64,000 bases of DNA from Candidatus Aminicenantes bacterium. GTDB taxonomy: Bacteria > Acidobacteriota > Aminicenantia > Aminicenantales > UBA8522. A program made the translations under genes and the position numbers. The notes beneath the pieces were generated by a model, which was not told the origin of the DNA, did not search any database, and saw nothing but the letters and a program-made list of their open reading frames with translations. Positions 32,758 through 59,969 of the stretch are shown in pieces. The stretch spans positions 235,207 through 299,206 of the forward strand of contig JAFNEO010000012.1 of the NCBI GenBank assembly GCA_017886205.1, in the 5' to 3' direction. How positions within the stretch are numbered: the stretch's first letter is position 1; every line of letters starts with the position of its first letter.

Positions 32758-32880
32758 TTTTTATCTCCTCTTCCTGACGCCCGCCTCCAAGGTCCGGGCA
32801 GCGATCGAGCAGTAGTTTCAGAAAAATGAGATTAAAGGATCTTACCTGCGTCTTATTAAATGCTTGGACAAATCCAACCC

Positions 32881-33843: not shown

Positions 33844-33851
33844 ATTTCTGG

Positions 33852-34106: not shown

Positions 34107-34143
34107 TTCGGTGCCAGGCAGCTAATTACCGAAATTCTAATAG
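34105..34143. repeat. REP family B copy
   Basis: aattcggtgccaggcagctaattaccgaaattctaatagc, begins at relE stop codon. Confidence 0.8.
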
Positions 34144-34810: not shown

Positions 34811-34837
34811 TTTGTTGATTGTTGAGACCTGACCCCC
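34811..34837. repeat. REP family A half-site
   Basis: tttgttgattgttgagacctgaccccc. Confidence 0.85.
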
Positions 34838-34854
34838 TGTCCGTTAACCCCCAA

Positions 34855-34912
34855 TCCGCGGCGTAAACTTTTGTTGACATGACCCCAACATAATGTTATT
34901 TTGGTCCGGCGC
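34855..34912 (+). promoter_or_regulatory. Promoter module copy 1 (AACCCCCAATCCGCGGCGTAAACTTTTGTTGACA-N17-TATTTT, extended TG -10)
   Basis: Same ~45-nt module recurs at 51470-51530 and 56417-56472. Confidence 0.55.
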
Positions 34913-35007
34913 GGAAGCGAGGTGTTGCGATTTGTGCAAGCGCGCCGGCTGGGCGTTGACTTGCCGGCGGCGGCACACGATAATCGCCCCCGCAGAGCTT
35001 GGCAACT

Positions 35008-37200
35008 GTGATCGGGCAAAGCGTATCCCACTATCGCATCGTCGACCGTCTGGGCAGCGGCGGGATGGGTGTCGTCTACGCCGCCGAAGACACGCGCCTG
35101 GGCCGCCGCGTGGCACTGAAGTTCCTGCCGGAAGATGTGGCTCAGGAGAGCGAGGCGGTGGAGCGCTTCAAGCGCGAGGCTCGCGCTGCCTCCGCCCTGA
35201 ACCACCCCCACATTTGCACCATCTACGACATCGACGAATACGAAGGCCGCCCCTTCCTGGCCATGGAACTGCTGGAAGGCGAAACCTTGAAGGATCGTCT
35301 CACCGGTCGCCCGCTCAAGCTCGAGGAATTGCTGGGGTGGGGCATCGAAGTGGCTGATGCCCTCGATGCTGCCCACTCCCGGGGCATCATCCACCGCGAT
35401 ATCAAGCCGGCAAACATCTTCATCACCCAGGGGGGCCGGGCCAAGGTTCTGGACTTCGGCTTGGCCAAGCTTGCGCCCCAGCTCGGGCGGCCCGCAGGGA
35501 CCTCCGCTACGGTCACGATGGATACGAATCTGACCAGTCCCGGCTCTTCCGTGGGTACGGTGGCCTATATGTCGCCCGAGCAGGCACGGGGGGAGGGACT
35601 CGATGCCCGCAGCGACCTCTTCTCCGTCGGATCAGTGCTGTACGAAATGGCCACTGGACAGCGGCCCTTTTCCGGCTCCACCCCGGCGTTGGTCTTCGAC
35701 GCCATTCTGCATCAGTCCCCGCCTGCGGCCAACAGCCTGAACCCCGCCCTGCCGACGGCGCTGGACCGCATACTCGCCAAGGCGCTGGAGAAGGACCGCT
35801 ACGCCCGCTACCAGAGCGCCGCCGAACTGCGCGCCGACCTCCACCGCCTGAAGCAGGAGTTAGATTCTGGCCGCGTCCCGGCCCACGCTGCCGCCCGCCC
35901 GCCGGACGACAAGTCGGTGGCGGTGCTCTACTTCGAGAACCTCAGCGGCGCCAAAGAGGACGAGTACTTCCGCGATGGCATGACCGAGGACGTCATCACC
36001 GATCTCTCCAAGATCAAGGGGTTGCAGGTGTTCCCCCGCGCCGCCGTGTTGACCTTCCGTGACAAGCCGGTCACCGGCCCCCAGGTGGGGCAGCAGTTGG
36101 ATGCCGCCTACGTTCTGGCCGGCAGCCTGCGTCGGGCAGGGAGCCGGCTGCGGGTCAACGCTCATCTGGTCGAGTCCTCCACCGGCCACTCGGTCTGGGC
36201 CGAGCGCTACGACCGCGAGCTGCAGGATCTCTTCGAAGTGCAGGACGAGATTGCCCGCAGCATCACCCAGGCGCTGCGCATCACCCTCTCCCCGCCAGAG
36301 CGGAAAGCCATCGCGCAGAAACCTACGCGAGACCCGCGCGCTTACGACTACTATCTGCGGGGGCGCAGCTACGCCCGGCGGGTGACGCGCCCCGACTTGG
36401 AACTGGCGATTGAAATGTACGACCGCGCCGCGACCTTGGACCCCAACTTCGCCCTCGCTTATGCCGGCCTGGCCATCGTCTGCGGCGTGTACCACGAATG
36501 GCACGAGCAACATCCCCGCTGGGTGGAGAAGGGCCTGGCCGCCTGCGAGCGTGCCCTCGAACTCGACCCCGAGCTGCCCGAAGCGCTGGCCGCGCGCGCT
36601 CGCCTCTTCTACGCCCAGCACCAGAACGATAAGGCCATCGAGTACGCCCGCCGCGCTATCGAGCGCAAGCCCGACTGCGAGGGCGCCTACTGGACGCTGG
36701 GGCAGGCCTGCTTCGTTTCCGATCGCTGGCAGGAAGCGGCAGCGGTGGTGGAACAGGCGCTCCAAGCCAGCGGCGACGACTACAACACCTATATCCCCTT
36801 CTACAACATCCTGGTGCGGCTGGGACGAGACAAGGAAGCATCCGCGGTGCGCGAACGGCACTTGCGCGCATTGGAGTTGCATTTGGGACGCGTGCCCGAA
36901 GACGTGCGGGCGCGGATTCTGGTGGCGGCCCTCTATGCTGAACTGGGCCGAGAAAGTGATGCCATCCGCGAACTGCAGATGGCGCTCGTCCTCCGTCCCA
37001 ACGACGGCAATATCCTCTACAATGCCGCCTGCACCTACGGCCTCCTGCAGAAGAAGGCGGAAGCGCTGACACTGCTGCGCAAGGCCAAGGAATCCGGCTT
37101 CGCCACCATGGAATGGGCGGCGCGCGACCCCGACCTCGCCTGCCTGCATGACGACCCCGAATTTCAGCAACTGGTCGGGATGGAAGGCTCCAGCCGCTAG
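35008..37200 (+). CDS. Hanks-type Ser/Thr protein kinase with C-terminal TPR domain (compositionally GC-rich relative to flanks)
   Basis: [32 protein letters not shown]; TPR C-terminus; start set to GTG 35008 by analogy with MIGQ... starts of the other two kinases (track start 34999 is TTG). Confidence 0.8.
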
Positions 37201-37356
37201 CTTCTCCGCCCGCCTACCTTGCTCAGGAAGGGGAGAGGTTTGCCCCCTCCCGCGGCCGCGGGCAATGTCCGCAAGCCAGGTCCACAAATTGTTGACAGAG
37301 CATCCCGGGAGGTACTATATTTTCCTTAAAACAGCCTTTCATTGCAGGAGGTCAAA

Positions 37357-46527: not shown

Positions 46528-46629
46528 GGTTTCACCCTTTTAGACATCGGCACTGTCTATTATATACTACGAAAGACTGGAGAAATGGTTCACTGTAGCG
46601 ATCGTTTTGATTCAGAACCCGGGGGAAGG

Positions 46630-46944
46630 TCAGTCCATATCCAGGGCGAAGCGGATGGCCTTATGGATCTCCTCCATTTTCCGCTCCGAAAGCCGGGCGA
46701 TTCTCGATTCCAGATAGGCCTTGGGAATCGTCAGCATCGAATCGCAATTCACGGCGCACGGCTTGGGGAGTCCGTCCTCCAACCCGAGAGAAACCTCGGC
46801 GGCGATTCCGCGGACGGTCGTCGTCACGGGCGCCACGGTGACTGCCGTCCTCACGGGATAGGCTTCGTCCCGGCTGAGGAGGACGACGGGCCTTCGCCCG
46901 GCCGGCGGTTTCAGCCGGGCCCACCAGACCTCGCCTTTTTTCAA
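46630..46944 (-). CDS. MazF/PemK-like toxin
   Basis: 'KKGEVWWARLKPPAGRRPVVLLSRDEAY' PemK-like N-terminus. Confidence 0.65.
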   Translation of the reverse strand: MKKGEVWWARLKPPAGRRPVVLLSRDEAYPVRTAVTVAPVTTTVRGIAAEVSLGLEDGLPKPCAVNCDSMLTIPKAYLESRIARLSERKMEEIHKAIRFALDMD

Positions 46945-47198
46945 GTCCAGTCCTCTTCTGACATGGACTCGGCCGACGTGCCGGCCATGGCCTCGGCGAT
47001 GGAGGCGTCCTCGGGCTTTTGACGATACCCGTTTTCGTACTCTCTCACCAATCGTTCCCTTTCGCGCGCTTCCTTCCAGGCGCGGAACGTTGCTAAAAGA
47101 AAGCCGCTGCGGCTCAATCCGGCTTTTCTGCGAATGGTCTCCAATTCCTTAAATTCCTCCCATGGGATACTGACGGCGAATTTGGCGGATTTTCTCAT
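46941..47198 (-). CDS. Ribbon-helix-helix antitoxin
   Basis: 'KFAVSIPWEEFKELETIRRKAGLSRSGFLLATFRAW' CopG-like; overlaps toxin start. Confidence 0.6.
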   Translation of the reverse strand: MRKSAKFAVSIPWEEFKELETIRRKAGLSRSGFLLATFRAWKEARERERLVREYENGYRQKPEDASIAEAMAGTSAESMSEEDWT

Positions 47199-47269
47199 GA
47201 CCAAGACCTGCTTCTTTCGGGTATTACCATGATAATACCGGAGTATTCCTATTGTCAAGTCGCAGATCG

Positions 47270-47390
47270 CGATTCAGTTCCGCCTTCGCCCGCGCGCTCG
47301 GCTTTTCCTCCGAATTCATCTCCCTCCTCGAGGCCGATAAAAGAGCGCCGTCCCTCGCCGCCCTGAACAAGATCGCCGCGTTGAAAAAGG
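47270..47390 (+). pseudogene. Remnant (~40 codons) of a third XRE-ImmA regulator gene copy
   Basis: Translates to FARALGFSSEFISLLEADKRAPSLAALNKIAAL, near-identical to residues ~20-55 of 51557 and 56507 products. Confidence 0.6.
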
Positions 47391-47549
47391 GTAATAAGAT
47401 CACACCGGCCTGAGAATTCATCTTCATATCCCGCGTCTTTTGAGTATGTTGATATTTGTTCCCGGCTCGAGCTTAGCAGGGCGCAAAATGTGTACGCAAG
47501 TGTTGACACATTTGGCTGTAATGATAAAATATCTCTTAAGGTGATCACC

Positions 47550-47816
47550 ATGAAGATGGCGGGCATTCGTGAAGTCCGGGCAAAATGCGCCGGCTATCTT
47601 GGCGGTTCCGAGCCTTTCCTGGTCACAAAACACGGGAAGGTCTCGGGTGTGTACATCCCGCTCGAATCTCCGGATCGGTTGCCCGACGATTGGCGCCGGG
47701 AAATCGGCAAGAGCCTGAGCCATTATCTCGCCAGGCTGCTGGAATTGAAGGGAATCACTGAGCGAGACGTTGGAGAGGATTTCCGTGCCTTTAGAGGCAG
47801 TCGTCGCCGACGCTAA
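47550..47816 (+). CDS. Phd/YefM-like (VapB-position) antitoxin
   Basis: 'MKMAGIREVRAKCAGYLGGSEPFLVTKHGKVSGVYIPLES'; SD aaggtga; overlaps PIN gene. Confidence 0.55.
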   Translation: MKMAGIREVRAKCAGYLGGSEPFLVTKHGKVSGVYIPLESPDRLPDDWRREIGKSLSHYLARLLELKGITERDVGEDFRAFRGSRRRR

Positions 47817-48207
47817 CGTTCTTCTTTCAGCGGTCATCGGAAAAGCCGCGCAAAAAATATTTTCAGAGCATAACCTTAAAGTCCATGCCTCAGAATTCAA
47901 TGCGAGCGAAGTCGGGGAATACCTGCCTGTCATGGCTAGAAAATATGCGCTGCCGGTGAATCTTGTCGTCTTGCGCTGGAGACTCCTCCCGCTGATCATC
48001 CATCCAGCTTCTGAATACGCCGGGCATTATAAAAAGGCATTAGCGGACCTAAAGGATCGAGATCCTGAGGATGCGCATGCGCTGGGGCTGGCCCGCGCGT
48101 TGAATTGTCCTCTGTGGTCGAATGATCGCCATCTGGCCAAATTCGAAGTCGCCTGTTACACGACGGCCCGGCTGCTCAAAATCCTGGAAATGCCGAAAGG
48201 ACGATAA
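47770..48207 (+). CDS. PIN-domain toxin (VapC-like)
   Basis: 'VVADANVLLSAV' N-terminal Asp block and 'WSNDRHL' C-terminal acidic block typical of PIN. Confidence 0.65.
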   Translation: MERISVPLEAVVADANVLLSAVIGKAAQKIFSEHNLKVHASEFNASEVGEYLPVMARKYALPVNLVVLRWRLLPLIIHPASEYAGHYKKALADLKDRDPEDAHALGLARALNCPLWSNDRHLAKFEVACYTTARLLKILEMPKGR

Positions 48208-48210
48208 GCC

Positions 48211-48248
48211 CGACGCCCCGAATTTGTTAAGTGTTAAGACCTGACCCC
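48211..48248. repeat. Degenerate REP family A half-site
   Basis: cgacgccccgaatttgttaagtgttaagacctgacccc. Confidence 0.7.
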
Positions 48249-48307
48249 GAAGGACCGAAGGAGGGCAATCCTTTAGCCTGGCGGTTATAATTGCCCTGGA
48301 AAAGGCG

Positions 48308-48937
48308 ATGACGCTGGTCAAGGAATATAAAGCCTACAGAAGAGCGTACAGGGAGATGAATCATAAAATTATGGAGAAGTATCTGAAGCATGATCAGCTT
48401 TTGAGATCAGCCAAGTTGCTCGGCGTTGTCCAGAGGGGCACTATGGTGTTCGAAAATGAGGAGGAAACAAACGTTTTGATGGATTTCGCCTTACATGAAT
48501 ATCGAGAGCACGACAAGAATGCAATCGCCCTCTACAGGGAGAAAATCGGCGGAGAGAGCGCCATGGAGAGGGCAATTTTGAACGCTCTGCTTTCCTCACA
48601 CACGTCATTGTTTAGAATTAGCGCTGTCTCGCCGTCAGAAAGTATCACGTCCTTAAGAGACCTCCTGAGTGAAGGGCAGCCGGTCAGACTCTTGGATATC
48701 GGCCTCAGCCAGTGCGCCACTCCAGGCTTCTTGATATTTGTCAGGCTCGTTCCATACAAGGACATGTTCATAACCTCCGGGATATCTTTCGTTTTTCCTC
48801 CCGGCCTGGAGAGATGTCTTCTTGGGAAGTATGAGGAGTTGTGCGGAAAAACCGAACCGGATGGGCTCTCGCTGGAGAGGTTTGTTTACTTTTTCAGGAG
48901 GAGCCGCGAAGATGGCCTGAGAGTCATTTATCAGTGA
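48308..48937 (+). CDS. Hypothetical protein (209 aa)
   Basis: Uninterrupted ORF in AT-richer accessory segment; no recognised motifs. Confidence 0.35.
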   Translation: MTLVKEYKAYRRAYREMNHKIMEKYLKHDQLLRSAKLLGVVQRGTMVFENEEETNVLMDFALHEYREHDKNAIALYREKIGGESAMERAILNALLSSHTSLFRISAVSPSESITSLRDLLSEGQPVRLLDIGLSQCATPGFLIFVRLVPYKDMFITSGISFVFPPGLERCLLGKYEELCGKTEPDGLSLERFVYFFRRSREDGLRVIYQ

Positions 48938-49028
48938 ACCTGAGCCATCAAGCGATCCTTATTACTTCATCTGTTTTGATCTTGCTTTATTCTAATAAAC
49001 GATTTTTAAATGAAAGAAAGAGTGCGCT

Positions 49029-49340
49029 ATGTGGTCGAAAAAGGAAAAGGACATTGCCCGGCGGGCTTTTGAGATGGCCCTGGAGAGAGAAGGCTTAGAG
49101 CTTTTAAGAAAGATCAAAGAGATGGCGCGTACGGCCGAGAATCGTAAAGATATCTGGCAGATCCACGATTTCCTCACGGAGAGAAGAACCGAAATCGATC
49201 AAAAGTATGATTATCGATATTCAGTGCTCATTCCTATTTTCGGCAGATTGGTCCGCGAAGAATGGATTAGACTCGATGAGCTTGAGGGTCTTGACGAAGA
49301 TAAAATCACGAAAATTAAAATAATGGCGAGTTTGGAGTAA
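49029..49340 (+). CDS. Hypothetical small protein (103 aa)
   Basis: ORF only. Confidence 0.3.
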   Translation: MWSKKEKDIARRAFEMALEREGLELLRKIKEMARTAENRKDIWQIHDFLTERRTEIDQKYDYRYSVLIPIFGRLVREEWIRLDELEGLDEDKITKIKIMASLE

Positions 49341-49453
49341 CCCATGGCTTTCATGGATCTGCTTGCCGAAGGCGAGGCCGGCAATAGAGCGCTGTCTTTC
49401 GCCACTCTCCATTTCCCTGTTATCGAATCGCCTTGGCCGCATCCGCTCGATGC

Positions 49454-49825
49454 TCACCTATATCGGCTGAGAATTCTCTCTCTATCCTCGTTCTCTTTGT
49501 CACCCTTGTAGTAAATTTCGATGAGCTCGACCCGATCCATTTCCTCGAAATAGGCATATACCACTCGAATTCCGGAATGGGCTCCTTTTCCTTTGAGCGC
49601 CCGGCAAGCGAATTTCCGGCCCTTGTAAACCTTTGGTCCTTGAATGCCAAGCTCCGCCATCTGCACAACCCCTTTGTTGTCAATCCTCAACTTATGGAAG
49701 AGTCCGAGCTCTGTGTTGATGAAATTGTCCAGGTCATCCTCTAGGGACCGGAACCTCTTGAGGAGCCTCTTCATGTCCCGCTCGAATTCCGGCAAGCGAA
49801 TAATTTCCTTAAACGGCGTCATCAT
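49454..49825 (-). CDS. RelE/ParE/HigB-like toxin (Gp49-like)
   Basis: C-terminal 'GIRVVYAYFEEMDRVELIEIYYKGDKE' toxin-fold signature; overlaps upstream antitoxin gene. Confidence 0.5.
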   Translation of the reverse strand: MMTPFKEIIRLPEFERDMKRLLKRFRSLEDDLDNFINTELGLFHKLRIDNKGVVQMAELGIQGPKVYKGRKFACRALKGKGAHSGIRVVYAYFEEMDRVELIEIYYKGDKENEDRERILSRYR

Positions 49826-50591
49826 ACTCCCGGACTGAATAAGCCGGTGCCCTGTAAAATACGGATTCGTACTCGATCGTTTTTCCCTCCTCAGTGGTCA
49901 GCCAGGGAACGTCGTTATGGGAATAATCAGTGATCTGACGGGCGTTCATGTCGGATAGCCTCCCCAGGACGTCGTTAATGATCTCTATCTCGCTGCCTTT
50001 CAACATGTTCAGGTCTGGCTTTCTCAGAGGCAGGTACTTTCTCTGAGGATATTCAAAATAATTCGCCTTAACTTCGACAATCACCCCATTAGCCATCATT
50101 TGATCCACGATTTTCCTGAATTCAAGGGGCGTCGGCCCATATTTGTTCTTCAGGTAAGTGGCGCCCATGAGCTGCTCCTCATACTTCTCGTAATAGTCAA
50201 AATCGATGAAATATAGGAGCTTATAAATGACCGTTTCGCCGATGGCGGGTTTTGCTCCCACCTTGTTGAGGATATAGATCAGTACTTCCTTGAATTTCCG
50301 GAGGTTCTTCTGGGGGATGTTAATTCTCATCCGGGGCATCGCTTCGGATCCATAGGCTTCCCGGCTTTCTCTGATCACGATTTGCGGCTCTTTATCTGGA
50401 TCGAGCAGGGTGTCCACAGACAGATTGAAGATTCCAGCTAATTTCCTAAGCTCCTCGGCGCACACCTTTCTCTCTCCGTTCTCAATCTGAGATATAGACG
50501 GGCGTGAAACACCGAGTTTCTCAGCCAAGGCCTGTTGGCTTAATCCAGTGGACTCGCGGATTTGCTTTATTCTTTGACCTAATGAATCCAT
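49809..50591 (-). CDS. HTH-XRE + Panacea (DUF4065/SocA-like) domain antitoxin
   Basis: N-terminal 'IKQIRESTGLSQQALAEKLGVSRPSISQIENGER' XRE HTH; C-terminal block 'VIYKLLYFIDFDYYEKYEEQLMGATYLKNKYGPTPLEF' resembling Panacea domain. Confidence 0.5.
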   Translation of the reverse strand: MDSLGQRIKQIRESTGLSQQALAEKLGVSRPSISQIENGERKVCAEELRKLAGIFNLSVDTLLDPDKEPQIVIRESREAYGSEAMPRMRINIPQKNLRKFKEVLIYILNKVGAKPAIGETVIYKLLYFIDFDYYEKYEEQLMGATYLKNKYGPTPLEFRKIVDQMMANGVIVEVKANYFEYPQRKYLPLRKPDLNMLKGSEIEIINDVLGRLSDMNARQITDYSHNDVPWLTTEEGKTIEYESVFYRAPAYSVREYDDAV

Positions 50592-50693
50592 ATTTCACTC
50601 CTAGGTTATAATTATAGATATGTTGGATAATATGTCAAGGCTATGTAAGAATATCGGACAAATCGAACCAGCAAGATATAGAGGGCAAAGACA

Positions 50694-50764
50694 GGGGATC
50701 AGGTCTGAATTCTTAACAAATTGAGGCGCCCCCTAGGATTTTTTGATTGTTGAGACCTGACCTC
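50694..50764. repeat. Degenerate REP family A doublet
   Basis: ggggatcaggtctgaattcttaacaa-N22-ttttgattgttgagacctgacc. Confidence 0.7.
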
Positions 50765-50922
50765 AAAAATCGATAATCCCCCCCGCGGCCGAGGCGGTAC
50801 GGTCGTCTTTATCCCACCTCTCCCCGAACTCAAGGAAACAAGCGAATACCTTATGAAATCCGGTTTCCGTCCGCTGTCTTGAAATAGCGGAACTCTTGTT
50901 TTATTAGGGCTTATCCGCTCAC

Positions 50923-51114
50923 TCACTGGCCGGGCGGAGGGATCTCCAGATCCCGACAGATCTTGCGCGCTAAAAAATCGTTTATTTCGGCATGTCTTGG
51001 CACTGTCGAAACCTTATATGTCCTTTCATTCAGATAAACCGAGTGGCTCCTGCCTTCCCGGAGCATAACGCATCCGTGTGCCTCCAGGAATCGGATCAAC
51101 TCCCTGCGCTTCAT
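50923..51114 (-). CDS. hicA: HicA-family toxin
   Basis: 'MKRRELIRFLEAHGCVMLREGRSHSVYLN' HicA signature. Confidence 0.7.
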   Translation of the reverse strand: MKRRELIRFLEAHGCVMLREGRSHSVYLNERTYKVSTVPRHAEINDFLARKICRDLEIPPPGQ

Positions 51115-51329
51115 GAAAGAGGGACTTCAATTTTTTCCCGAATGACGCTTTTGTCCGCGATTTCCTGCTCCGCGAGCTTTTTGTTGGCTTCTAGGACTAA
51201 GCAGACGGCTTCTCGAAGATTCCGGCGAGCTTCACTCAAGGTTTTTCCTTGCGTATTCGCCCCGGGCAATTCTTCTACAAAACCGACGTAGCCTTCCGGC
51301 ACCTTCATAAAGACGGCCGTGAACGACAT
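51111..51329 (-). CDS. hicB: HicB-family antitoxin
   Basis: 'MSFTAVFMKVPEGYVGFVEELPGANTQGKTLSEARRNLREAV'; SD agaggtg; overlaps hicA. Confidence 0.65.
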   Translation of the reverse strand: MSFTAVFMKVPEGYVGFVEELPGANTQGKTLSEARRNLREAVCLVLEANKKLAEQEIADKSVIREKIEVPLS

Positions 51330-51454
51330 CTTTGCACCTCTATTATGAATAGACGCTTTTCCTGCGGGTTTTCTCATTTTTTCCCTCGCCAGTTTAATAT
51401 ATCACAATTTCTCAAGGAATCATGGCCGAGCGCCTAAAGATCAGCAAAACGGAC

Positions 51455-51479
51455 TTATTGATTGTTGAAACCTAACCCC
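51455..51479. repeat. Degenerate REP family A half-site
   Basis: ttattgattgttgaaacctaacccc. Confidence 0.6.
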
Positions 51480-51530
51480 AAGTCCGCGGCGTAAACTTTT
51501 GTTGACATTTCCCTAACTTATTGTTATATA
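51470..51530 (+). promoter_or_regulatory. Promoter module copy 2 (AACCCCAAGTCCGCGGCGTAAACTTTTGTTGACA-N17-TATATA with TGn extended -10)
   Basis: TTGACA 51502-51507, TATATA 51525-51530. Confidence 0.55.
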
Positions 51531-51556
51531 GTCCCTTGCAGGGGCGTTAATAAGGG

Positions 51557-52651
51557 ATGCAAGGGGTCCTCGGCATCAAGCTCAAAAAAGCCCGCACCGA
51601 TCTGGGCCTCTCCCAGGCCGCTTTCGCCCGCGCGCTCGGCTTCTCCTCCGAATTCATCTCCCTCCTCGAGGCCGATAAAAGAGCGCCGTCACTCACCTCC
51701 CTGAACAAGATCGCTGCCTACCTCAAGAAAGACCTCGGCTACTTCTTCCAGGAGAAAGAAGGCGCCTTCAACATCCTCCTCCGGGGCGACGCCCTCAAAG
51801 GGCCCGAAGGCCTCGACGCCGCCTCCCAAGCCGTCCTCCAGCGCTTCAAACGATACTGCGACGACTATCTGAGGCTCGAACGCGTCGCCAACCGCGCCGG
51901 CTCCTCCGCCGGCCCCTCCCGCCGCCTCCCTCTCGCTCCCTTCTACACCAACATCTCCCCTGAGCGCCTGGCCGAAGAGGAACGCCGTCGCCTCGGTGTT
52001 GGCGATGAGTCCATCCGCGACATCTTCGCCCTCTCCGAGCTCAACGGCTGCCGCATCCTCCGCCTTCCCATCCCCAGCGGCGCCAAGCTCTCCGGCGCTT
52101 TCATCTTCCTCGAGGACAGGGAAGCGGCCTTCGCCCTCATCAACAGCGCCGACACACCCGGCCGCCAGGCCTTCACCGCCGCCCACGAATACTGCCATTA
52201 CCTCAAGGACCGCCACGAGGGGCCGCTCATCGAAAACCCCGATGTTTTCATCGACGAGTATGTCTCCCTCTACCATCCGCGGGAGAAATTCGCCCAGACG
52301 TTCGCGGCCTGCTTCCTCATGCCCGCCTCCAAGGTCCAGGCGATCATCGAGAAGGAATTCGGCGGCCGAAGGCTGACCTTCGACCATGTGCTCTACATGA
52401 AGCGGTATTTCGGCGTGAGCTTTGCCGCCATGCTGCGCAAAGTGAGGGAGCTGGGATTTGTGTCGGCGGCCCAGTTTGAGGATTATATCAAGCGCGATCC
52501 GGACAGCCGAGAGCGAGAGGTATTCGGGGCGAGGGGAAGGCGGAGGGCGAACGCCAGCCGGCCCATCTATTCTGACCGATACATGTTGCTTAAGGCTGAA
52601 GCCGCAAAGACGAAGCGCCAAACTTCGGATAGTGCGAAATCAAAAGGTTAA
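51557..52651 (+). CDS. Single-chain XRE-HTH / ImmA-IrrE (M78) metallopeptidase regulator (COG2856-like)
   Basis: N-terminal 'LKKARTDLGLSQAAFARALGFSSEFISLLEADKR' HTH; C-terminal 'TAAHEYCHYL' HExxH. Confidence 0.75.
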   Translation: MQGVLGIKLKKARTDLGLSQAAFARALGFSSEFISLLEADKRAPSLTSLNKIAAYLKKDLGYFFQEKEGAFNILLRGDALKGPEGLDAASQAVLQRFKRYCDDYLRLERVANRAGSSAGPSRRLPLAPFYTNISPERLAEEERRRLGVGDESIRDIFALSELNGCRILRLPIPSGAKLSGAFIFLEDREAAFALINSADTPGRQAFTAAHEYCHYLKDRHEGPLIENPDVFIDEYVSLYHPREKFAQTFAACFLMPASKVQAIIEKEFGGRRLTFDHVLYMKRYFGVSFAAMLRKVRELGFVSAAQFEDYIKRDPDSREREVFGARGRRRANASRPIYSDRYMLLKAEAAKTKRQTSDSAKSKG

Positions 52652-52702
52652 TATTGCCTGCCAAAAAAACCACCATGGAAGAGATCTTGGTATCGATTTC
52701 CA

Positions 52703-52734
52703 GAGCGCCGGTTCGATCCCGGTCAGCTCCACCA
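52703..52734 (+). other. tRNA/tmRNA 3'-end-like fragment (T-arm GCCGG-TTCGATC-CCGGT + acceptor CAGCTCC + A + CCA); candidate att/integration scar
   Basis: No matching 5' acceptor strand (GGAGCTG) or cloverleaf upstream. Confidence 0.4.
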
Positions 52735-52937
52735 GATTATTTCCCTTGTTTCCCTTGGCATTTGAGCATTTCCGTGATTCTGCTTTTTTAGACTGAGTTA
52801 GCTAGACTGAGCCATTTTGGGCAGTTTTGTCCACACCGTGTCCACACGGGGAGAGGTCTGTTTTCAGTTGACTTGCTCCCCAATTCCTTGCTACCCTTTA
52901 ACCACACCTGCGTGAATCTAAACGTAAGGAGTAGGCA

Positions 52938-53453
52938 ATGATATGGAAAAAACCGGACGCGGACAACCCTCCAACCCAGACTCCCATGCAACCGCCGCCA
53001 CAGCCATCGGCCCCGCGGAGTCAGCCGCCGCTTGCCAAGGAACGGGCTTTGATCGGTCCTTCGATCGAGATCAAGGGCACCCTCTCGGGCGGCGAGGATC
53101 TGTTTGTGGAGGGCCGGGTTGAAGGAAAGATCGAACTGGCTCAGCACAGTGTCACAATCGGCACGAGCGGGCGCATTAAGGCTGATATCCAGGGACGGAG
53201 CATCGTCGTTATGGGAGAGGTCGAAGGTAATCTCGATGGGTCAGAGCAGATTATCTTGCGGCAATCCAGCAAGGTGCGAGGCAACCTTGTTGCCCCGCGT
53301 GTGAGTCTGGAGGACGGGTCGGACTTCAAGGGCAGCATCGACATGACTTCCAAACCTGCAGTGGAAGCAAAACCGTTACATACAGATAATACTGCAGTGA
53401 AGCCTCCGTCACAGCAGGTGCTTAGACAGGATAGGACTGGGGATAAGGTCTGA
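52938..53453 (+). CDS. Bactofilin-family protein
   Basis: 'IEIKGTLSGGEDLFVEGRVEGKIELAQHSVTIGTSGRIKADIQGRSIVVMGEVEGNL' beta-helical repeats. Confidence 0.6.
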   Translation: MIWKKPDADNPPTQTPMQPPPQPSAPRSQPPLAKERALIGPSIEIKGTLSGGEDLFVEGRVEGKIELAQHSVTIGTSGRIKADIQGRSIVVMGEVEGNLDGSEQIILRQSSKVRGNLVAPRVSLEDGSDFKGSIDMTSKPAVEAKPLHTDNTAVKPPSQQVLRQDRTGDKV

Positions 53454-53517
53454 TTCCAACGGTGCGAGACGGCCGCCACCCGGCGGCCTGCAATGAGAAC
53501 TTTCGACGCAGCATCCC

Positions 53518-54126
53518 ATGACTCTGAGTGCTCCTCGAGAAACCCAGGTTTCGCCGGCAGTGCACAAATCGCTCGGACTGAATGCGCTGCTGAACCCGGT
53601 GCGGGGCGATCGAAGTTACTCCATCCTGGACCTCGGCCCCGCCCTCGAAGCGAACGTGCGGTTCTGGTCGCAATTCTCCTGCTGGCTGCATATCCACGAC
53701 TTTTATCGCAGTTACCGGGAGTGGAAGGCAGCGGTTGTGCCGGAGGAGGAGTCCGAGGAGGCGGCGTTTTCCGCACTGCTTCCGTTCAGTGACGAAACGG
53801 TCTTCGACATTATCCTTGCCTGGGACATTTTTAATTACTTCGATCTGCGGGAACTCGAGGCGCTCGTTCAGAGGCTGAGCCGCTGGTGCCGTCCGGGGAC
53901 CAGGCTTTTCGCGCTGATCTCATCTCTGCCGGACATCTCTGTGTCACCCACGATGTTCAGAATTCTCAACCGCGAACAGATGATCTACGAAATACCAACC
54001 CAGGATACGAGACCATGCCCGCGCCATCAGCCGCGGGATATCGCCAGACTCATGGCACGATTCACTGTATCCAGTTCCTTCCTGTTGCGTCACGGCATCC
54101 AGGAGTACGTTTTCGCATTCAAATAG
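53518..54126 (+). CDS. Putative class I SAM-dependent methyltransferase-like protein
   Basis: Motif I-like 'SILDLGPALEAN', motif II-like 'FDIILAWDIFNYF', 'GTRLFALIS'. Confidence 0.4.
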   Translation: MTLSAPRETQVSPAVHKSLGLNALLNPVRGDRSYSILDLGPALEANVRFWSQFSCWLHIHDFYRSYREWKAAVVPEEESEEAAFSALLPFSDETVFDIILAWDIFNYFDLRELEALVQRLSRWCRPGTRLFALISSLPDISVSPTMFRILNREQMIYEIPTQDTRPCPRHQPRDIARLMARFTVSSSFLLRHGIQEYVFAFK

Positions 54127-54591
54127 GAGAACCCGCGTTCGTTCCGTTTCTGCTCGCCGCCTGCCGGAGATTAAGCAGGTTCGGAGTCGAGATGCTGGCG
54201 TCCGGCGCTCTTGTGAGACTCGGAGTGCTCGGCGGTCGGGGGTACGCTGCCTCACCTCTAAGACTCGAAGGCTCGAAAAATCTCTAAACACAGAGACTGA
54301 CCTGCCCCCGCAAGGGATCCCGGGGCACTAACGCCGCTGGACGCAAGAAATTCCCTCAGTCTCCTGAGAAACTTCGCTGAAAGCTTCTTCCTCTCAACCT
54401 TATGGGCGAGGTCGATGATCGGAATCCTCTTGTTTACGTCCTTGAGCCGTTTCAGCTTGGTCCATAATTCAACCCACCGCCTATCGCCCGGGCGCCCATA
54501 CGCACGCGACGGACCCCATTTTTTATTGGCTAAATGATAGTACCGCTCCTCTTCAAACGTCCGTTTTATTGAGTTTGAGGAATATCCGCAA

Positions 54592-54650
54592 TTGACATAA
54601 ATAATCTATATGTAAATTATTATTTGACAAATAGTCTATCCATATGTAAA
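54592..54650. repeat. Two ~25-bp imperfect direct repeats (TTGACAtAAATAaTCTATaTATGTAAA / TTGACAAATAGTCTATCCATATGTAAA)
   Basis: AT-rich gene-free segment. Confidence 0.4.
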
Positions 54651-54727
54651 AAAGGTAAGAACTTCGAGATCAGAAAAAGCCCCAAGGTCTATCTCTGCGA
54701 CGAGGTCGTTCAGCGTCGTTTCCAGAT

Positions 54728-54768
54728 ACTTTACCGACCTCGATAATACCCTTTGCGGATTCCAGATC
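54728..54768. repeat. Repeat family C copy
   Basis: tactttaccgacctcgataataccctttgcggattccagatc. Confidence 0.6.
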
Positions 54769-54912
54769 TAAATATCAATACCAGATCTGGACCTCCGAAG
54801 TAGGTGGCAAGCACACAACCCACGGAACTGAGGCCGCAGAGAAACAAAAATGGAAACCAGGACGTATACATAGTGTACGGTGACGTTGGCATTTCGGCAT
54901 AAGGAAGAAACA

Positions 54913-56256
54913 ATGCCGGGGTCGAGGAAAATCCCATCCCGCTGGGTTCTTGCCCTATGTCTCATCGCCGGTCCCTTATTTACCTCTTCCGGGGTTGGAA
55001 ACTCGGCCGATCCCTCCGCTCAGACTTCCTACGACCACGAAAACGGAGCCGACCGTCCATATTCCCTTCTCGAACGGCTCTACAAAGACCATCGGTATTT
55101 CGAGCTCCGCGACGCCGTCGAGCTGATGAAAGACCTGCCTGCGCCCGAGATGGAGTTCTACCGGGGGGCGGCCGACGAGGTCTTCAACCGGCTGGATTCC
55201 GCCGTCGCTCATCTCCGGAACTATCTTGAGGGAGGCGCGGCCGCGGGCCTCGACCGGCCGCTGGCCCAAGAGGCCTGGGCTCTTCTCCGTGACGCTTACA
55301 GGAGGGCGGGCCAGTATCGGAAATCGGCCGAAATCAGACGCTTTATCCTCGAGCGCTACGGGACCGGCCTGGACGCCGGCGGGAAGACCAATCGCGGGAG
55401 CGGGAGCGTCATCTGGTCCGCCCTGGCCGATGTCCCGCCTCAAACTGTCGAGGTCCTGGGAGCGTCGGATATTGCGATGGAGAATCGCAACTTTCCTGTC
55501 CGCATCAAGGACCGGATTTTTTATTTCTCCTATGATACCGGCGCCAGCTTCTCGGTCCTCTATCAATCGGTCGCGGAGGAATTGGGCCTCGCCCTTTTGG
55601 GGCAAGGGATAAAAATCCAGGCGGCCACGGGCAAGTGGGTTGACGCCCGGCTGGCCGTCGTCCCCGAGATTCGATTGGGCCAGGCCGTCATCCGGAACGC
55701 GGTCTTCCTGGTGCTGCCCGATGATTTCTTCCCCGTGCGGCGGGTCCGCGACGGCGTCGAACGCCGTGGCTTCATCGGCACTCCCGTCCTGGCCGCCCTC
55801 AAGGAAATCACCGAGACCCGGGACGGCCGTTTCATCATCCCGGCCTCGCCGCAACCTCGTCCCGTTCAGAACATGTGCTTCTTCGGGACCATGCCCATCA
55901 CCGAGGTCGTCCACCGGGGCGCTCGGCTGTTGTTCTTCGTGGATACGGGGGCTTCAGTGACGGACCTTTATCCGACATTCTTCCGCTTCTACCGGGGAGA
56001 GATTCAATCCCGTACGAAACCCGTGCCCGTCAGGATGCGCGGAGTCGGCGACGAGCGGACGGTCAGGACGCATATCCTGGACGAGTTCGCCTTCAAGGCG
56101 GGCGGCCGCGACCTCGCTCTGAGGAAGGTTATGGTCCATACCCAGGTCACCCATTCCATAACGGACATTTTCCACGGCAGGATCGGCCTTGACGTCCTGA
56201 CGCACTTCTCGCGGATGACGCTCAACTTCGAGTCCATGAGCTTTATCCTGGAATAA
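54913..56256 (+). CDS. Secreted protein with two tandem retropepsin-like aspartic protease domains (two D-T-G-A-S motifs)
   Basis: Signal peptide; 'FYFSYDTGASFSVLYQ' and 'LLFFVDTGASVTDLYP'; SD aaggaag before ATG 54913. Confidence 0.6.
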   Translation: MPGSRKIPSRWVLALCLIAGPLFTSSGVGNSADPSAQTSYDHENGADRPYSLLERLYKDHRYFELRDAVELMKDLPAPEMEFYRGAADEVFNRLDSAVAHLRNYLEGGAAAGLDRPLAQEAWALLRDAYRRAGQYRKSAEIRRFILERYGTGLDAGGKTNRGSGSVIWSALADVPPQTVEVLGASDIAMENRNFPVRIKDRIFYFSYDTGASFSVLYQSVAEELGLALLGQGIKIQAATGKWVDARLAVVPEIRLGQAVIRNAVFLVLPDDFFPVRRVRDGVERRGFIGTPVLAALKEITETRDGRFIIPASPQPRPVQNMCFFGTMPITEVVHRGARLLFFVDTGASVTDLYPTFFRFYRGEIQSRTKPVPVRMRGVGDERTVRTHILDEFAFKAGGRDLALRKVMVHTQVTHSITDIFHGRIGLDVLTHFSRMTLNFESMSFILE

Positions 56257-56416
56257 CGACTATTTGCTTTTGTCGAGAACAGCCTGAATCGAATTCGGGA
56301 AGGATGCTCAAAGGCAGTCAGCACCTGCACGAGGTCGCGCCCGGGGACGTCTCCGGCCGTCGTCGCTGACAAGATCATGGCCCTCGTTCATCGGCACCAG
56401 GGTCCCCGAACTTCTA

Positions 56417-56472
56417 ACCCCAAGTCCGCCGAGTAAACTTTGGTTGACATCTCCCTGACATAGTGTTATATA
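56417..56472 (+). promoter_or_regulatory. Promoter module copy 3
   Basis: TTGACA 56445-56450, TATATA 56467-56472. Confidence 0.55.
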
Positions 56473-56506
56473 CAAGCCACGGGGAACGCGCCAGCGTTTC
56501 AGGGCA

Positions 56507-57568
56507 ATGCACGGTGTCTTAGGGTCCAAGCTCAGAAAAGCCCGCACCGATCTAGGCCTCTCCCAGGCCGCTTTCGCCCGCGCGCTCGGCTTCTCCTCCG
56601 AGTTCATCTCCCTCCTCGAGGCCGATAAAAGAGCGCCGTCTCTCACCACCCTGAACAAGATCGCCGCCTACCTCAAGAAAGACCTCCACTACTTCCTCCA
56701 GGAGAAAGAAGACGCCTTCAACATCCTCCTCCGGGGCGACGCGCTCAAAGGGCCCGAAGGCCTCGACGCCGCCTCCCAAGCCGTCCTCCAGCGCTTCAAA
56801 CGCTACTGCGACGACTATCTGAGGCTCGAGCGCCGCGCCAACAGCCGCCTCCCTCTCGCTCCCCTCTACACCAACATCTCCCCCGAGCGCCTGGCCGAAG
56901 AGGAACGCCGCCGCCTTGGTCTCGGCGATGAGCCCATCCGCGACATCTTCGCCCTCTCCGAGCTCAACGGCTGCCGTATCCTCCGCCTTCCCATCCCCAG
57001 CGGCGCCAAGCTCTCCGGCGCTTTCATCTTCCTCGAGGACAGGGAAGCGGCCTTCGCCCTCATCAACAGCGCCGACACACCCGGCCGCCAGGCCTTCACC
57101 GCCGCCCACGAATACTGCCATTACCTCAAGGACCGCCACGAGGGGCCGGTCATTGAAAACCCCGATTTCTTCATCGACGAGTATGTCTCCCTCTACCATC
57201 CGCGGGAGAAATTCGCCCAGACGTTCGCGGCCTCGTTCCTGATGCCCGCCTCCAAGGTCCGGGCGATCATCGAGAAGGAATTCGGCGGCCGCAGGCTGAA
57301 CTTCGACCATGTACTTTACCTTAAGCGGTATTTCGGCGTGAGCTTTGCCGCGATGCTGCACAGGGTGAGGGAAATGGGATTTGTGACGGCGGCCCAGTTT
57401 GAGGACTATATAAAGCGCGACCCGGACAGCCGCGAGCGAGAGTTGTTTGGGGCGAGGGGAGGGGAGAGGGCGAGCGCCGGCCGTACCGTCTTCTCCGACC
57501 GGTATAAGCTGCTTCAGCTCGAGGGTATGAGGCAAAAGCGCCGAATCCCCAATAGAGGAAAACGATAA
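56507..57568 (+). CDS. Single-chain XRE-HTH / ImmA-IrrE (M78) metallopeptidase regulator, second intact copy
   Basis: ~85-90% identical to 51557-52651 product incl. HEYCHYL. Confidence 0.75.
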   Translation: MHGVLGSKLRKARTDLGLSQAAFARALGFSSEFISLLEADKRAPSLTTLNKIAAYLKKDLHYFLQEKEDAFNILLRGDALKGPEGLDAASQAVLQRFKRYCDDYLRLERRANSRLPLAPLYTNISPERLAEEERRRLGLGDEPIRDIFALSELNGCRILRLPIPSGAKLSGAFIFLEDREAAFALINSADTPGRQAFTAAHEYCHYLKDRHEGPVIENPDFFIDEYVSLYHPREKFAQTFAASFLMPASKVRAIIEKEFGGRRLNFDHVLYLKRYFGVSFAAMLHRVREMGFVTAAQFEDYIKRDPDSRERELFGARGGERASAGRTVFSDRYKLLQLEGMRQKRRIPNRGKR

Positions 57569-57681: not shown

Positions 57682-58173
57682 ATGAAAATCCTCGACGATT
57701 CTGTCAACTCGCCTTCGATTAGGGAGAGCCTCAGGATCGACTTGCCCCAGGTCTTGCCCCCCGGGGAATGCAGAAACGCCGTTTATGACGCAAACCTGGC
57801 TGCCCATTTTATCGCGGGCCCAGTGAACCGGGCCCAATACCTAGCCCAGATAAGCGCCGAGCAGAAGGTGCGGGAAAGGCCGCTGTGCTCTGTGGCGGCG
57901 ACCCATGAACAGGAGCTGGATAGGATGGCTAAGATTATTCGCCAGCGGCAAGTCCTCAACGAACGAATCGGCGTCATCGGAGTTCCAGGAGATGGCAGTG
58001 CTAAGGGGGGGTCGAATACAACGGGCAACTTACCATTCAGACGAGCGGTGCCTGGAAGTCTGGTGAGCAACATCGGGCTGGTGGGGGTGGGCGGGGCGAA
58101 CAGGATAATTAAAAGCGCCGGCAGGGTAAGGACCCGGACGACGATGAATTTTCGGTGCGGTGAAGAGATTTAA
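57682..58173 (+). CDS. Hypothetical protein
   Basis: ORF only; start chosen at MKILDDSV (track start 57610). Confidence 0.3.
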   Translation: MKILDDSVNSPSIRESLRIDLPQVLPPGECRNAVYDANLAAHFIAGPVNRAQYLAQISAEQKVRERPLCSVAATHEQELDRMAKIIRQRQVLNERIGVIGVPGDGSAKGGSNTTGNLPFRRAVPGSLVSNIGLVGVGGANRIIKSAGRVRTRTTMNFRCGEEI

Positions 58174-58276
58174 TATTAAACGATATGTAAGAGAATTATT
58201 GCATGGTAGACATAAGTAATATCCTTGGCGGCTATTATTAATATTTGTTCTTTATGGTGAAAAGAATTTGAGAAAA

Positions 58277-58906
58277 ATGCCAGAGTGCAATAACCGGGAT
58301 TGTGCGAGCGCGATAATTGTGACTAATTCCTCACGGAATTTTGGTAATCCTTCATTTGCTGTGACAAGGGCACTTGAATGTGGATTTATTAAATATGGGC
58401 AAAATATTCTTGAAATCGGATCTGGGAATTTACGCAATTCGTCCTATATCATCAAGAACATAGATCGGGTCGGCGTCAGCGCTTATGAGATTATGAGCAC
58501 GGTGCAAAAATATGCAAGCGCGTATAATACTTTTAGAAAAAAGGGAGGAATTATACTCCATAGCTTTCCAAATGGGCTGATTTATGATGCTATCGTTTGC
58601 ACGTTCGTTTTGGAAACAGTCTGTCCACAGGCAAAACGAACCTTCTTGCTTAAGAAAATCAGGCAGAGGTTAAAATCCGATGGGATTTTGGTTGCTTCTT
58701 TTCGCGGGGTTTCTGGGGTCATTGGAACAGAATATAAAGAATGTTCTAAAAAGGAAGGATGGCTGACGCCGTTGCATACATTTATAAAGCCTTATACGAT
58801 TAAAGAGGCAGACTCTCTGCTTAAATCCTGTGGGTTTACAAAAATAGTTTTTTTGCAGGATTATCGCGTTAACACTCCACGAAACATTCATCTCGTTGCA
58901 ATCTAG
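58277..58906 (+). CDS. Small class I SAM-dependent methyltransferase
   Basis: Motif I 'ILEIGSGNLRNSSYI', acidic 'VSAYEI', motif II 'YDAIVCTFVLETV', motif III 'DGILVASF'; AT-rich. Confidence 0.55.
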   Translation: MPECNNRDCASAIIVTNSSRNFGNPSFAVTRALECGFIKYGQNILEIGSGNLRNSSYIIKNIDRVGVSAYEIMSTVQKYASAYNTFRKKGGIILHSFPNGLIYDAIVCTFVLETVCPQAKRTFLLKKIRQRLKSDGILVASFRGVSGVIGTEYKECSKKEGWLTPLHTFIKPYTIKEADSLLKSCGFTKIVFLQDYRVNTPRNIHLVAI

Positions 58907-58914
58907 GAGTTAAT

Positions 58915-59940
58915 ATGGAAAGAAAATGGCTTGAAGCATTTTATAAAGAATGCGGACGTGAAGTATCATTAGCCTATAATGTACTAAATCAAACAAATAA
59001 TTGGGGGATTACCCTTGCAGTGGCCGTGGTCGTTACATGCTTCTTGGGTACTGCTCGGGTTGAGGGAAGAACTATTTATCTCACTTATCCTACGCTTCTG
59101 CAATGGTACCTAGTTATTTTCGGATGGATCATCATGGTCCGATTCTTCGTTCGCTCTGCCCTTGGATTGGTCAATATGTATCGTTGGAATGAATTAATTA
59201 ACTCGACATGTAAGGTTCTTTCTCTTCCAGAATCACATCCAGATACTCCTCTTTTAAATAGAAACCTCGCGAAAAAGATCGAGGCTTACTTTTTCAGATT
59301 TAGAAGCCCCAAAACAAGACGGTTTATAGTCTGGCACAACCTAAAACTCATGTACCTTTGGTTCTTTATAATCCTTCTGTGTCTGTTCACTTGGGGAATA
59401 ATTGTCCTAGAAAAAACCATTTTGTTCTGGGTTGGGCTACTTCTTTTTATTATACCTACAATCATAGAAATAGTCTGGTTTAATAGATGGTACGGCCTAC
59501 AATACCAAGGCTTAGAACTGGAAGTGGAAAAGGACTTGAAAGATATATTAAATGAAAAGCGCGAAAGTATTCCTGAAATAGGTCGGGATGTCATGATATT
59601 AGGTTTCTGTGAGGATGGTCCTTTTAAACATGCGAAAACACTCCTCACGAATCCCACGGTGAAGTGGCTTCCATGGGCCTACCAATCACACGAAATACAT
59701 CCTTTTGTCCTTGCACAACTCTCTGATAATGAGAAGCTGGATAGTCAAAGAATCGCATTTGCGTCCTGGGAAAAGGGATTCATTGGTCCCGTGGATATCA
59801 TCAGATATGGCAGGATCGACTATCATAAATTCGTTTCCGGCCATTTACAGCTCACAGTTATGCTTGATGAATACAATGGAAGCTTGCCAACTCAACGCAT
59901 TGAAATTAGAAACCCCAAAACATTTTGCTATTTCCTATGA
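58915..59940 (+). CDS. Polytopic membrane protein of unknown function
   Basis: >=5 hydrophobic helices; 9-nt gap from MTase gene. Confidence 0.45.
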   Translation: MERKWLEAFYKECGREVSLAYNVLNQTNNWGITLAVAVVVTCFLGTARVEGRTIYLTYPTLLQWYLVIFGWIIMVRFFVRSALGLVNMYRWNELINSTCKVLSLPESHPDTPLLNRNLAKKIEAYFFRFRSPKTRRFIVWHNLKLMYLWFFIILLCLFTWGIIVLEKTILFWVGLLLFIIPTIIEIVWFNRWYGLQYQGLELEVEKDLKDILNEKRESIPEIGRDVMILGFCEDGPFKHAKTLLTNPTVKWLPWAYQSHEIHPFVLAQLSDNEKLDSQRIAFASWEKGFIGPVDIIRYGRIDYHKFVSGHLQLTVMLDEYNGSLPTQRIEIRNPKTFCYFL

Positions 59941-59969
59941 TAAATGAAAAGCATAATTAGGAGAAATAA

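Follow-up and report, generated by a model that had tools for sequence, protein, structure and literature searches.

Co-oriented copies and fragments of a fused XRE-M78 regulator gene in a defence island of Candidatus Aminicenantes

Why does a bacterial chromosome hold two intact copies of one regulator gene, together with pieces of it, all lying in the same orientation among toxin-antitoxin (TA) and defence genes? The question is raised by a stretch of 64,000 nucleotides (the window) from a Candidatus Aminicenantes bacterium (GenBank assembly GCA_017886205.1, contig JAFNEO010000012.1, positions 235,207 to 299,206). The intact genes, called copy A and copy B here, encode a single-chain protein made of an XRE-type helix-turn-helix (HTH) domain and an M78 zinc peptidase of the ImmA/IrrE type. 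We consider it probable that A and B are old paralogues encoding fused repressor-proteases, which serve as generic, signal-responsive gatekeepers of the gene modules downstream of them, and that the scraps are debris of module turnover. The protein itself adds nothing new: fused XRE-M78 regulators or antitoxins, their link to defence operons and the idea of autocleavage have already been published (Makarova 2009; Lau 2022; Ernits 2023). The locus is of interest as a clear natural record of a hub regulator changing its partners. This record consists of the same gene and putative promoter before unrelated defence genes in sister genomes, of all combinations of leader and tail, and of a trail of co-oriented fragments.

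For comparison we used 80 metagenome loci and 73 genome loci carrying the regulator family (locus numbers below are preceded by L). Its named relatives come from metagenome-assembled genomes (MAGs) of Candidatus Aminicenantes and Zixibacteria. Relatives of a distant clade are 52-60% identical to copy A, those of a close clade, to which the window belongs, 62-90%.

Intact copies and their upstream module

Both HTH_3 and Peptidase_M78 exceed the curated Pfam cut-offs in copy A (2.9e-11 and 6.4e-13, respectively) and in copy B, and the precomputed Pfam domains of 120 homologues are likewise these two. The zinc-peptidase residues H210, E211 and H214 of the HExxH motif (residues 210-214) and the downstream glutamate ligand E243, all present in A and B, show at least 90% conservation among 39 sequences. 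Since motif and glutamate are conserved, it is plausible, as far as sequence can tell, that the fusion permits self-cleaving derepression, as an earlier reading of this DNA (the preliminary description) had proposed.

The two proteins are 87.5% identical (309/353) and their coding sequences 90.7%, in line with the 85-90% given in that description. Pairwise alignment also bore out that the copies are homologous over their full length, beyond the HTH, and flank a variable segment in the same orientation. Nucleotide identity is 94.2% over codons 1-300 and 74.2% over codons 301-364. A single indel of 27 nt is located in the inter-domain linker, the longest perfect match extends over 171 nt (52055-52225 against 56978-57148), and the HTH recognition region is identical.

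Among PADLOC models, which carry no curated cut-off here, the best matches are RmrA models (PDLC03949, E 8e-31 for A and 2e-33 for B, profile positions ~5-275 of 363); capP gives 4e-22 and 7e-22 and capH 6e-6 and 6e-7 for A and B, respectively. The AlphaFold model has a pLDDT of 73.9, with low confidence in linker residues 116-128, the site of the A/B indel, and in the loop between HExxH and E243. Foldseek places CapP (7t5t) first for the modelled peptidase (E 1.5e-4, probability 1.00), with IrrE (3dti/3dte) and PprI (8sln) among the other near structures, while the predicted HTH comes close to the ImmR DNA-binding domain (7t8i), DdrO (6jq1) and C-proteins. The alignments to CapP and IrrE span only 164-208 columns. 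By sequence, the best match among solved structures is a fused homologue, PDB 9vzy (E 1e-9), for which we found no relevant paper. A regulator of the ScfR, RamB or PrpR type was considered and rejected: the NCBIfam RamB model aligns to residues ~5-68 alone, at 30-44 bits where the cut-off is 700, and Pfam DUF2083 is absent.

Ahead of both genes lies a module of 59 nt, already recognised in the preliminary description at about 60 nt, which is 88% identical between the copies and comprises TTGACA, a 17-nt spacer and TGTTATATA. Shuffled sequence gives an expectation of 0 chance matches. The module is found upstream of the regulator gene in at least 14 close-clade loci, one of them a Zixibacteria MAG, and is near-invariant in 18 upstream regions from related loci. 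Because it is conserved in this position, it is the gene's own upstream region and not, as had been supposed, a transplanted promoter. Apart from TTGACA and TGTTATATA, three blocks hardly vary, namely CTAACCCC, GTCCGC and CCCTAAC; they lie outside both hexamers, and a bare promoter would not be expected to need them. Candidate operators are found in two imperfect inverted repeats, of which GTAAAC-N4-GTTGAC covers the -35 box and CTAAC-N5-GTTAT the -10 box. We call the module a putative promoter on account of its 10/12 consensus matches and its conservation across genomes. A third copy, missing from the preliminary description, stands before an unrelated Ser/Thr kinase gene (Table 1).

Between the -10 box and the ATG, the two copies carry 5' untranslated regions (UTRs) that are unrelated in sequence. 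Type 1, that of copy A, also occurs in L008, L009, L010b, L011, L012, L013, L073 and L029, and type 2, that of copy B, in L010a, L014, L005 and L015; L010 has both in tandem. Since each type is thus common to genes elsewhere, A and B are not fresh duplicates. Recent duplication in situ is ruled out, and the copies are old paralogues that have retained their similarity across the first 900 nt. Gene conversion within the genome, considered as the sole cause of this similarity, is only partly supported: by segment, A and B are 93-97% identical, no closer than either is to L003 or L009, although L009 and L010a attain 94-100%.

Right after the presumed transcription start, each UTR type has its own short GC-rich hairpin (CCCTTGCAGGGG in type 1, AACGCGCCAGCGTT in type 2), which is kept in other genomes.

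Relatives, partners and fragments

In the distant clade the regulator gene is single-copy, and extra fragments were found in none of ~58 metagenome loci and in one of the 73 genome loci. Its downstream neighbour there, in 42 metagenome loci (for instance L030, 11192-11623) and 29 of the 73 genome loci, is a conserved protein of ~146 aa with an N-terminal membrane anchor and no Pfam or PADLOC match. Regulator and membrane-anchored protein are a conserved two-gene module of this Aminicenantes branch.

The close clade presents another picture. In ten of its loci there are additional copies or fragments, without exception in the orientation of the intact gene, and the downstream genes are of defence type and mutually unrelated: HNH nucleases (7 loci), Fic/SoFic proteins (6), an AriA/Old/GajA-like (OLD-type) ATPase and a PDC-M15A-like protein. 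Over residues 1-300, identity among the regulators that head the HNH, Fic and PDC-M15A-like genes is 93-97%. Such variation behind a nearly constant gene supports the earlier idea that the regulator marks boundaries between modules.

The C-terminal tail was examined as a partner-specific region and rejected, since tails are 63.5% identical where partner types agree and 63.9% where they differ. As the tail does not track the partner and near-identical regulators precede unrelated genes, a generic gatekeeper is favoured over a partner-specific neutraliser, although the two roles are not mutually exclusive. The tails fall into two types, all four combinations of UTR and tail occur, and similarity of the coding sequences tracks genome lineage, not UTR type. 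We conclude that the gene has been recombined internally many times, by recombination or gene conversion. DUF499/DUF1156 clusters stand downstream of copy B and also of its 90% relative in L003, with different intervening genes.

On a complete Aminicenantes MAG chromosome (OY970261.1, ~2.40-2.44 Mb), two family members, L099 (62% to copy A) and L147 (54%), lie ~18 kb apart, and 3.7 kb before the intact gene of L099 there is an N-terminal fragment of 40 codons.

The window itself retains fragments of the gene. The remnant of a third copy that had been described in the same orientation was confirmed as a sharp-edged piece of 104 nt (47280-47383), identical to A in 95 positions and likewise to B; tblastn recovers residues 27-58 at 91%. 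Antisense open reading frames (ORFs) are present exactly where they had been reported, at 47224-47427 and 56308-56658, and a further minus-strand ORF lies at 51547-51708. All three mirror the conserved HTH segment, and the annotation pipeline of the Joint Genome Institute (JGI) has called genes on the antisense strand of the remnant. A fourth paralogue near 31.7-32.8 kb was considered and dismissed: ORF 31696-32757 encodes an unrelated DUF4143 ATPase, and all that is found there is an intergenic scrap of the M78 core, 43 nt long.

Fragment edges recur in gene coordinates, HTH pieces running from nt 62-72 to 161-167 and M78 pieces from 708-713 to 737-739. Three loci (L010, L024, L073) contain internal-deletion derivatives in which HTH and M78 parts are joined. 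The kinase block with its solo module (window 34848-37213) is 97% identical in L015, where it sits between the module and an HTH fragment that follows it directly, the junction to the fragment running through a 7-nt microhomology, CGCCCGC. In the window, ~10 kb of other genes separate the corresponding pieces, and module order differs between the two genomes. In L003, a regulator copy behind HicAB is cut at nt 122, and a kinase follows it. Evidently, these islands have been reshuffled by homologous as well as illegitimate recombination, and the regulator debris is a record of both.

Truncated, HTH-only ORFs of 82 aa that retain the module are found in L004 (497-745) and in L009 (1194-1442), the latter equal to L010 4446-4694. 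The L009/L010 form ends in a novel C-terminal tail; since this tail also survives in L015 (~11118-11200), the truncated allele has been inherited across genomes. Such an allele might have a function, perhaps that of a repressor that cannot be cleaved.

Table 1. Features of the regulator locus and its surroundings (positions in the window)
Feature	Position	Strand	Remarks
Putative promoter/operator module, copy A: CTAACCCC..GTCCGC..GTAAACTTTTG-TTGACA, 17-nt spacer, TGTTATATA	51472..51530	+	Conserved
Putative promoter/operator module, copy B	56414..56472	+	Match to copy A module
Solo putative promoter module, -10 degraded to TATTTT	34844..34902	+	~100 nt 5' of Ser/Thr kinase gene 34999-37200
5'-UTR type 1 (copy A): short CCCTTGCAGGGG hairpin, then GCGTTAAT	51531..51556	+	
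5'-UTR type 2 (copy B): AACGCGCCAGCGTT hairpin	56473..56506	+	
Copy A: fused XRE-HTH and M78 (ImmA/IrrE-type) zinc peptidase, 364 aa	51557..52651	+	Pfam, PADLOC, Foldseek
Copy B: fused XRE-HTH and M78 peptidase, 353 aa	56507..57568	+	Pfam, PADLOC
Remnant of third copy, gene nt 62-165 (HTH helices 2-4)	47280..47383	+	No promoter, start codon or helix 1
Second scrap, M78 core, gene nt 756-798, intergenic	32770..32812	+	81% identical to copy A
tmRNA/tRNA-like 3'-end fragment: T-arm, 3' acceptor strand, ACCA	52683..52734	+	Read from sequence
Bactofilin	52938-53453	+	Between A and B
202-aa protein	53518-54126	+	Between A and B
DUF4143 gene scar	54586-54779	+	Between A and B
Retropepsin-like protein	54880-56256	+	Between A and B
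163-aa ORF, no known family	57682-58173	+	Downstream of copy B
Methyltransferase-like protein	58277-58906	+	Downstream of copy B
341-aa membrane protein, GC 41%	58915-59940	+	Downstream of copy B
DUF499 ATPase HmaC	59970-62888	+	PADLOC HmaC 3e-69
Full REP-like palindromes	15346-15425, 19178-19245, 21903-21972, 28519-28588, 50693-50764		
Solo right halves of REP-like palindrome	16984, 24768, 33428, 34815, 48227, 51458	+ (all)	

Weighing the explanations

How would such a gatekeeper work? The chain comprises an N-terminal XRE HTH, a flexible linker and a zinc peptidase of the ImmA/IrrE/CapP type. An HTH dimer would bind the module across the -35 and -10 boxes of its own gene and thereby repress transcription of this gene and of those downstream. 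A stress or infection signal may then activate the peptidase, which would cut off the HTH, either in cis or in trans between copies, and release the promoter. Because the same module stands at A, B and the kinase, and because the recognition helices of A and B are identical, these two copies and the solo module of the kinase would form one small regulon. Modules would arrive or be swapped together with the leading regulator gene, or by recombination inside it, and later deletions, partly through microhomology, would leave co-oriented fragments behind. Copy A now appears orphaned, with a tmRNA-like scar and unrelated cargo behind it.

The single components of this model have precedents. In over half of cases, COG2856 and Xre domains form a fusion, encoded in operons alongside diverse toxins, and a LexA-like autoprotease-repressor model has been put forward for them (Makarova 2009, PMC2701414). 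The architecture of such fusions, e.g. M. tuberculosis Rv2515c (PMC2701414), is exactly that of A and B, but the published prediction is generic and covers neither tandem proliferation in particular lineages nor debris of uniform orientation nor a conserved promoter module. DdrO and IrrE (PprI) of Deinococcus, as well as ImmR and ImmA of ICEBs1, have the same two folds and follow the same logic of a repressor cut by an M78 peptidase. Those are pairs of proteins governing a DNA-repair regulon or element excision, whereas here a single chain without a GAF domain lies in a TA/defence context that is devoid of integrase and excisionase.

CapH and CapP, regulators of CBASS and other immune operons (Lau et al. 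2022; Calloji et al. 2026), likewise combine an XRE repressor with an HExxH M78 peptidase, and both PADLOC and Foldseek agree with this likeness. CapP cleaves CapH upon DNA damage (10.1101/2022.04.27.489752; PMC13228613), and a CapH-CapP fusion adjoins DISARM (Lau 2022, 10.1101/2022.04.27.489752). Both families are met at the edges of defence operons; the operon of L005 encodes a DEAD/MZB helicase and an SNF2 helicase. In contrast to CapP, A and B lack the C-terminal GAF domain, which forms part of the single-stranded-DNA-binding groove in CapP and IrrE, and have no cysteine in the loop from HExxH to the third ligand, hence no evident cysteine switch. Their domain order is HTH, then peptidase, in a single chain.

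Several observations speak against the gatekeeper model. A strict sigma-70 scan calls no promoter at the module, since TATATA, its second hexamer, does not end in T. GAF gave no match, and residues 300-364 are predicted to be helical in a model of moderate confidence. CapH/CapP are encoded upstream of, and divergently from, the immune operon they regulate (Lau 2022, 10.1101/2022.04.27.489752), while A, B and their relatives run in the direction of the genes behind them. PADLOC and Pfam assign no known family to the genes directly behind copy B, an insertion of 41% GC separates this copy from the Hma-type system downstream, and for Hma being controlled by copy B there is only an argument of position. 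Behind copy A there is a gap of 286 nt with the scar, then the bactofilin gene, so that copy A may control itself alone. Finally, the clustering of fragment edges may in part come from BLAST finding only the best-conserved segments.

An explanation we regard as possible, if unlikely, is that A and B belong to classical TA pairs of the RosmerTA type, each copy being an RmrA that neutralises a toxin encoded directly downstream, with two modules and a decayed third in the window. RmrA (Millman 2022; Ernits 2023, NetFlax node D25) shares with A and B the Peptidase_M78 core and often the N-terminal XRE HTH. It is a hub antitoxin with many unrelated toxins as partners, encoded downstream or upstream of it, and is enriched in defence contexts (Ernits 2023, PMC10440598), and the close clade displays the same pattern. 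The best PADLOC matches of both copies are RmrA models and cover nearly the whole protein, in relatives a 4-nt overlap with the following gene is frequent, in the manner of TA operons, the surrounding island is dense in TA pairs, and a small ORF of no known family follows copy B at 41-113 nt. On the other hand, neither RmrT models nor toxin families match the genes behind A or B (PADLOC, with Pfam for the 163-aa ORF and the bactofilin), although RmrTs are diverse and a missing match does not prove that there is none. Next to copy A no partner is encoded; the gene is followed by the scar and, 286 nt away, by bactofilin. HNH, Fic and PDC-M15A-like genes stand behind regulators that are 93-97% identical, and neither the tail nor the regulator as a whole co-varies with the partner, which is hard to square with specific neutralisation of one protein by another. 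The TA explanation also overlaps with the gatekeeper model, as RmrA may itself work through transcription and cleavage. A bolder idea, which we hold to be rather unlikely, makes the regulator gene and its promoter an integrase-free handle by which defence and toxin cassettes dock and are exchanged through the conserved first 900 nt. Modules would then arrive pre-wired to one stress-responsive promoter, and HTH-only forms (L004, L009, L010) and solo promoters would persist as working parts of the regulon, i.e. uncleavable repressors and extra regulated promoters, and not as debris.

That the copies are leftover ImmR/ImmA-like immunity modules, each marking the end of a degraded integrative element or prophage once inserted in a tmRNA or tRNA gene, we consider improbable. 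ImmA/ImmR and phage Xre/COG2856 pairs are indeed typical of integrative and conjugative elements and of prophages (PMC2701414), a tmRNA-like 3' end lies 32 nt past the stop codon of copy A, and there is a low-GC insertion at 58-60 kb. Yet the gene calls of the 64-kb window include no integrase, excisionase, phage structural or conjugation gene, and the sole transposase-type gene is a RAYT-like Y1 gene at 8790-9461. In Aminicenantes the family is widespread on chromosomes and has a conserved partner that is not of phage type; the scar is missing from related loci with shared flanks, and its Rfam score is far below threshold. That one gene was mis-assembled as two tandem copies is hardly credible, even though the DNA comes from a metagenome and copy A is where short contigs of several samples break off. 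JGI metagenome contigs of 164-332 kb match the window, and three independent long assemblies of this size agree on the gene order. Moreover, A and B differ in UTR type, in the 27-nt indel and in the 74%-identical 3' end, and both variants have orthologues elsewhere.

The locus could reveal whether partner swapping in such systems proceeds by homologous recombination within the regulator gene. It could also help to mark the boundaries of defence islands in poorly studied phyla such as Aminicenantes. For annotation it is a warning, given the spurious antisense ORFs and the contig breaks induced by the repeat.

Cargo, defence island and dispersed repeats

The segment between A and B (52652-56506) holds part of the cargo listed in the preliminary description. 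Pfam supports the bactofilin and the tandem-retropepsin protein, which is secreted and contains two retropepsin-like domains (two Asp_protease_2 stretches), but the 202-aa protein described as methyltransferase-like has sub-threshold hits only. No homology was found between it and the methyltransferase-like protein encoded behind copy B. The supposed AT-rich direct repeats correspond instead to three parts of a DUF4143 ATPase gene (its promoter, its first and its last codons), which L003 carries intact; the stretch is therefore the deletion scar of such a gene. As for the supposed tRNA-like att fragment, ARAGORN finds no tRNA; the element reads as a tmRNA-like 3' end (Rfam tmRNA E=0.021, far below gathering) and is possibly an old attachment-site scar. 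None of the cargo genes lies beside the regulator in ~150 other loci. A second bactofilin gene (13616-14176, minus strand) sits beside a Peptidase_M50/CBS gene in an ordinary chromosomal context, which makes the bactofilin between A and B an extra paralogue.

Recombination between the copies had been thought to excise or invert this segment. Excision is feasible, with the 171-nt perfect match as substrate and loss of 3.8 kb as the outcome; inversion is impossible because A and B are direct repeats. The event itself was not observed: exact-protein look-ups of A, B and HicB retrieved no excision or recombinant junction; the arrangement does not vary among the long assemblies, and the short contigs stop within the repeat. 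Many short assemblies of this population (L089-L097, contigs from other samples) stop inside copy A, at about codons 48, 106, 188 and 344. Such ends are expected where a repeated gene breaks the assembly graph, and structural variants would therefore be hidden.

The copies are embedded in a TA/defence island with PemK, PIN, Panacea-HTH, HicAB, AbiE and ParE/Phd genes. TA genes are dense in two islands, 28600-34450 and 46600-51400, which together contain two PemK, AbiEi/AbiEii, two HicAB, Phd/ParE, PIN_2, DUF6290 and a Panacea-HTH antitoxin with its 123-aa partner. Further downstream of copy B, the HmaC gene also has an NCBIfam match to anti-phage-associated DUF499, below the cut-off; beyond it follow DUF7680, DUF1156 and a PLD-SNF2 helicase, which with DUF499 constitute an Hma-type defence system. 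Between copy B and this system, the GC content falls to 41% at 58000-60000, against ~57% around, in a segment carrying the methyltransferase-like and 341-aa membrane-protein genes. This segment is probably a recent insertion.

The window is also rich in dispersed repeats. A palindrome of ~70-80 nt (GGGGTCAGGTCTCAACAATCAACAAAT ... inverted), resembling repetitive extragenic palindromes (REPs), has 15 occurrences where 0.01 would be expected, mostly just 3' of genes. A right half of it (51451..51479, plus strand) abuts and overlaps the 5' end of module A, and REP halves lie beside the module likewise at 34808-34836 (the solo module), in L008 and in L010a. The palindrome is present in L003 and L015 as well. 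We rejected an integron/attC reading of these elements: there is no intI integrase, terminal R''/R' boxes are lacking, and the repeats also follow ordinary genes (15-51 kb). The palindromes extend past any GTTRRRY-like box and occur as solo halves, too.

The Y1 transposase gene (PF01797, minus strand) is located between inverted repeats at 8726-8757 and 9562-9593, with the repeat AATTCGGTGCCAGGCA.CTAATT.CCGAA. Further copies of this second dispersed repeat (AATTCGGTGCCAGGCA...) are found at 6107, 7593, 16879 and 34104, and the layout is that of a REP-associated tyrosine transposase (RAYT) with its REPs.

The kinase behind the solo module has paralogues: three Ser/Thr kinase genes are present in the window (6228-7589, 19472-21859, 34999-37200), and two of these include TPR regions. 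Inside a coding region, at 25020-26124, an imperfect repeat recurs every ~126 nt in at least five copies that are 68-75% identical, suggesting a repeat-domain protein.

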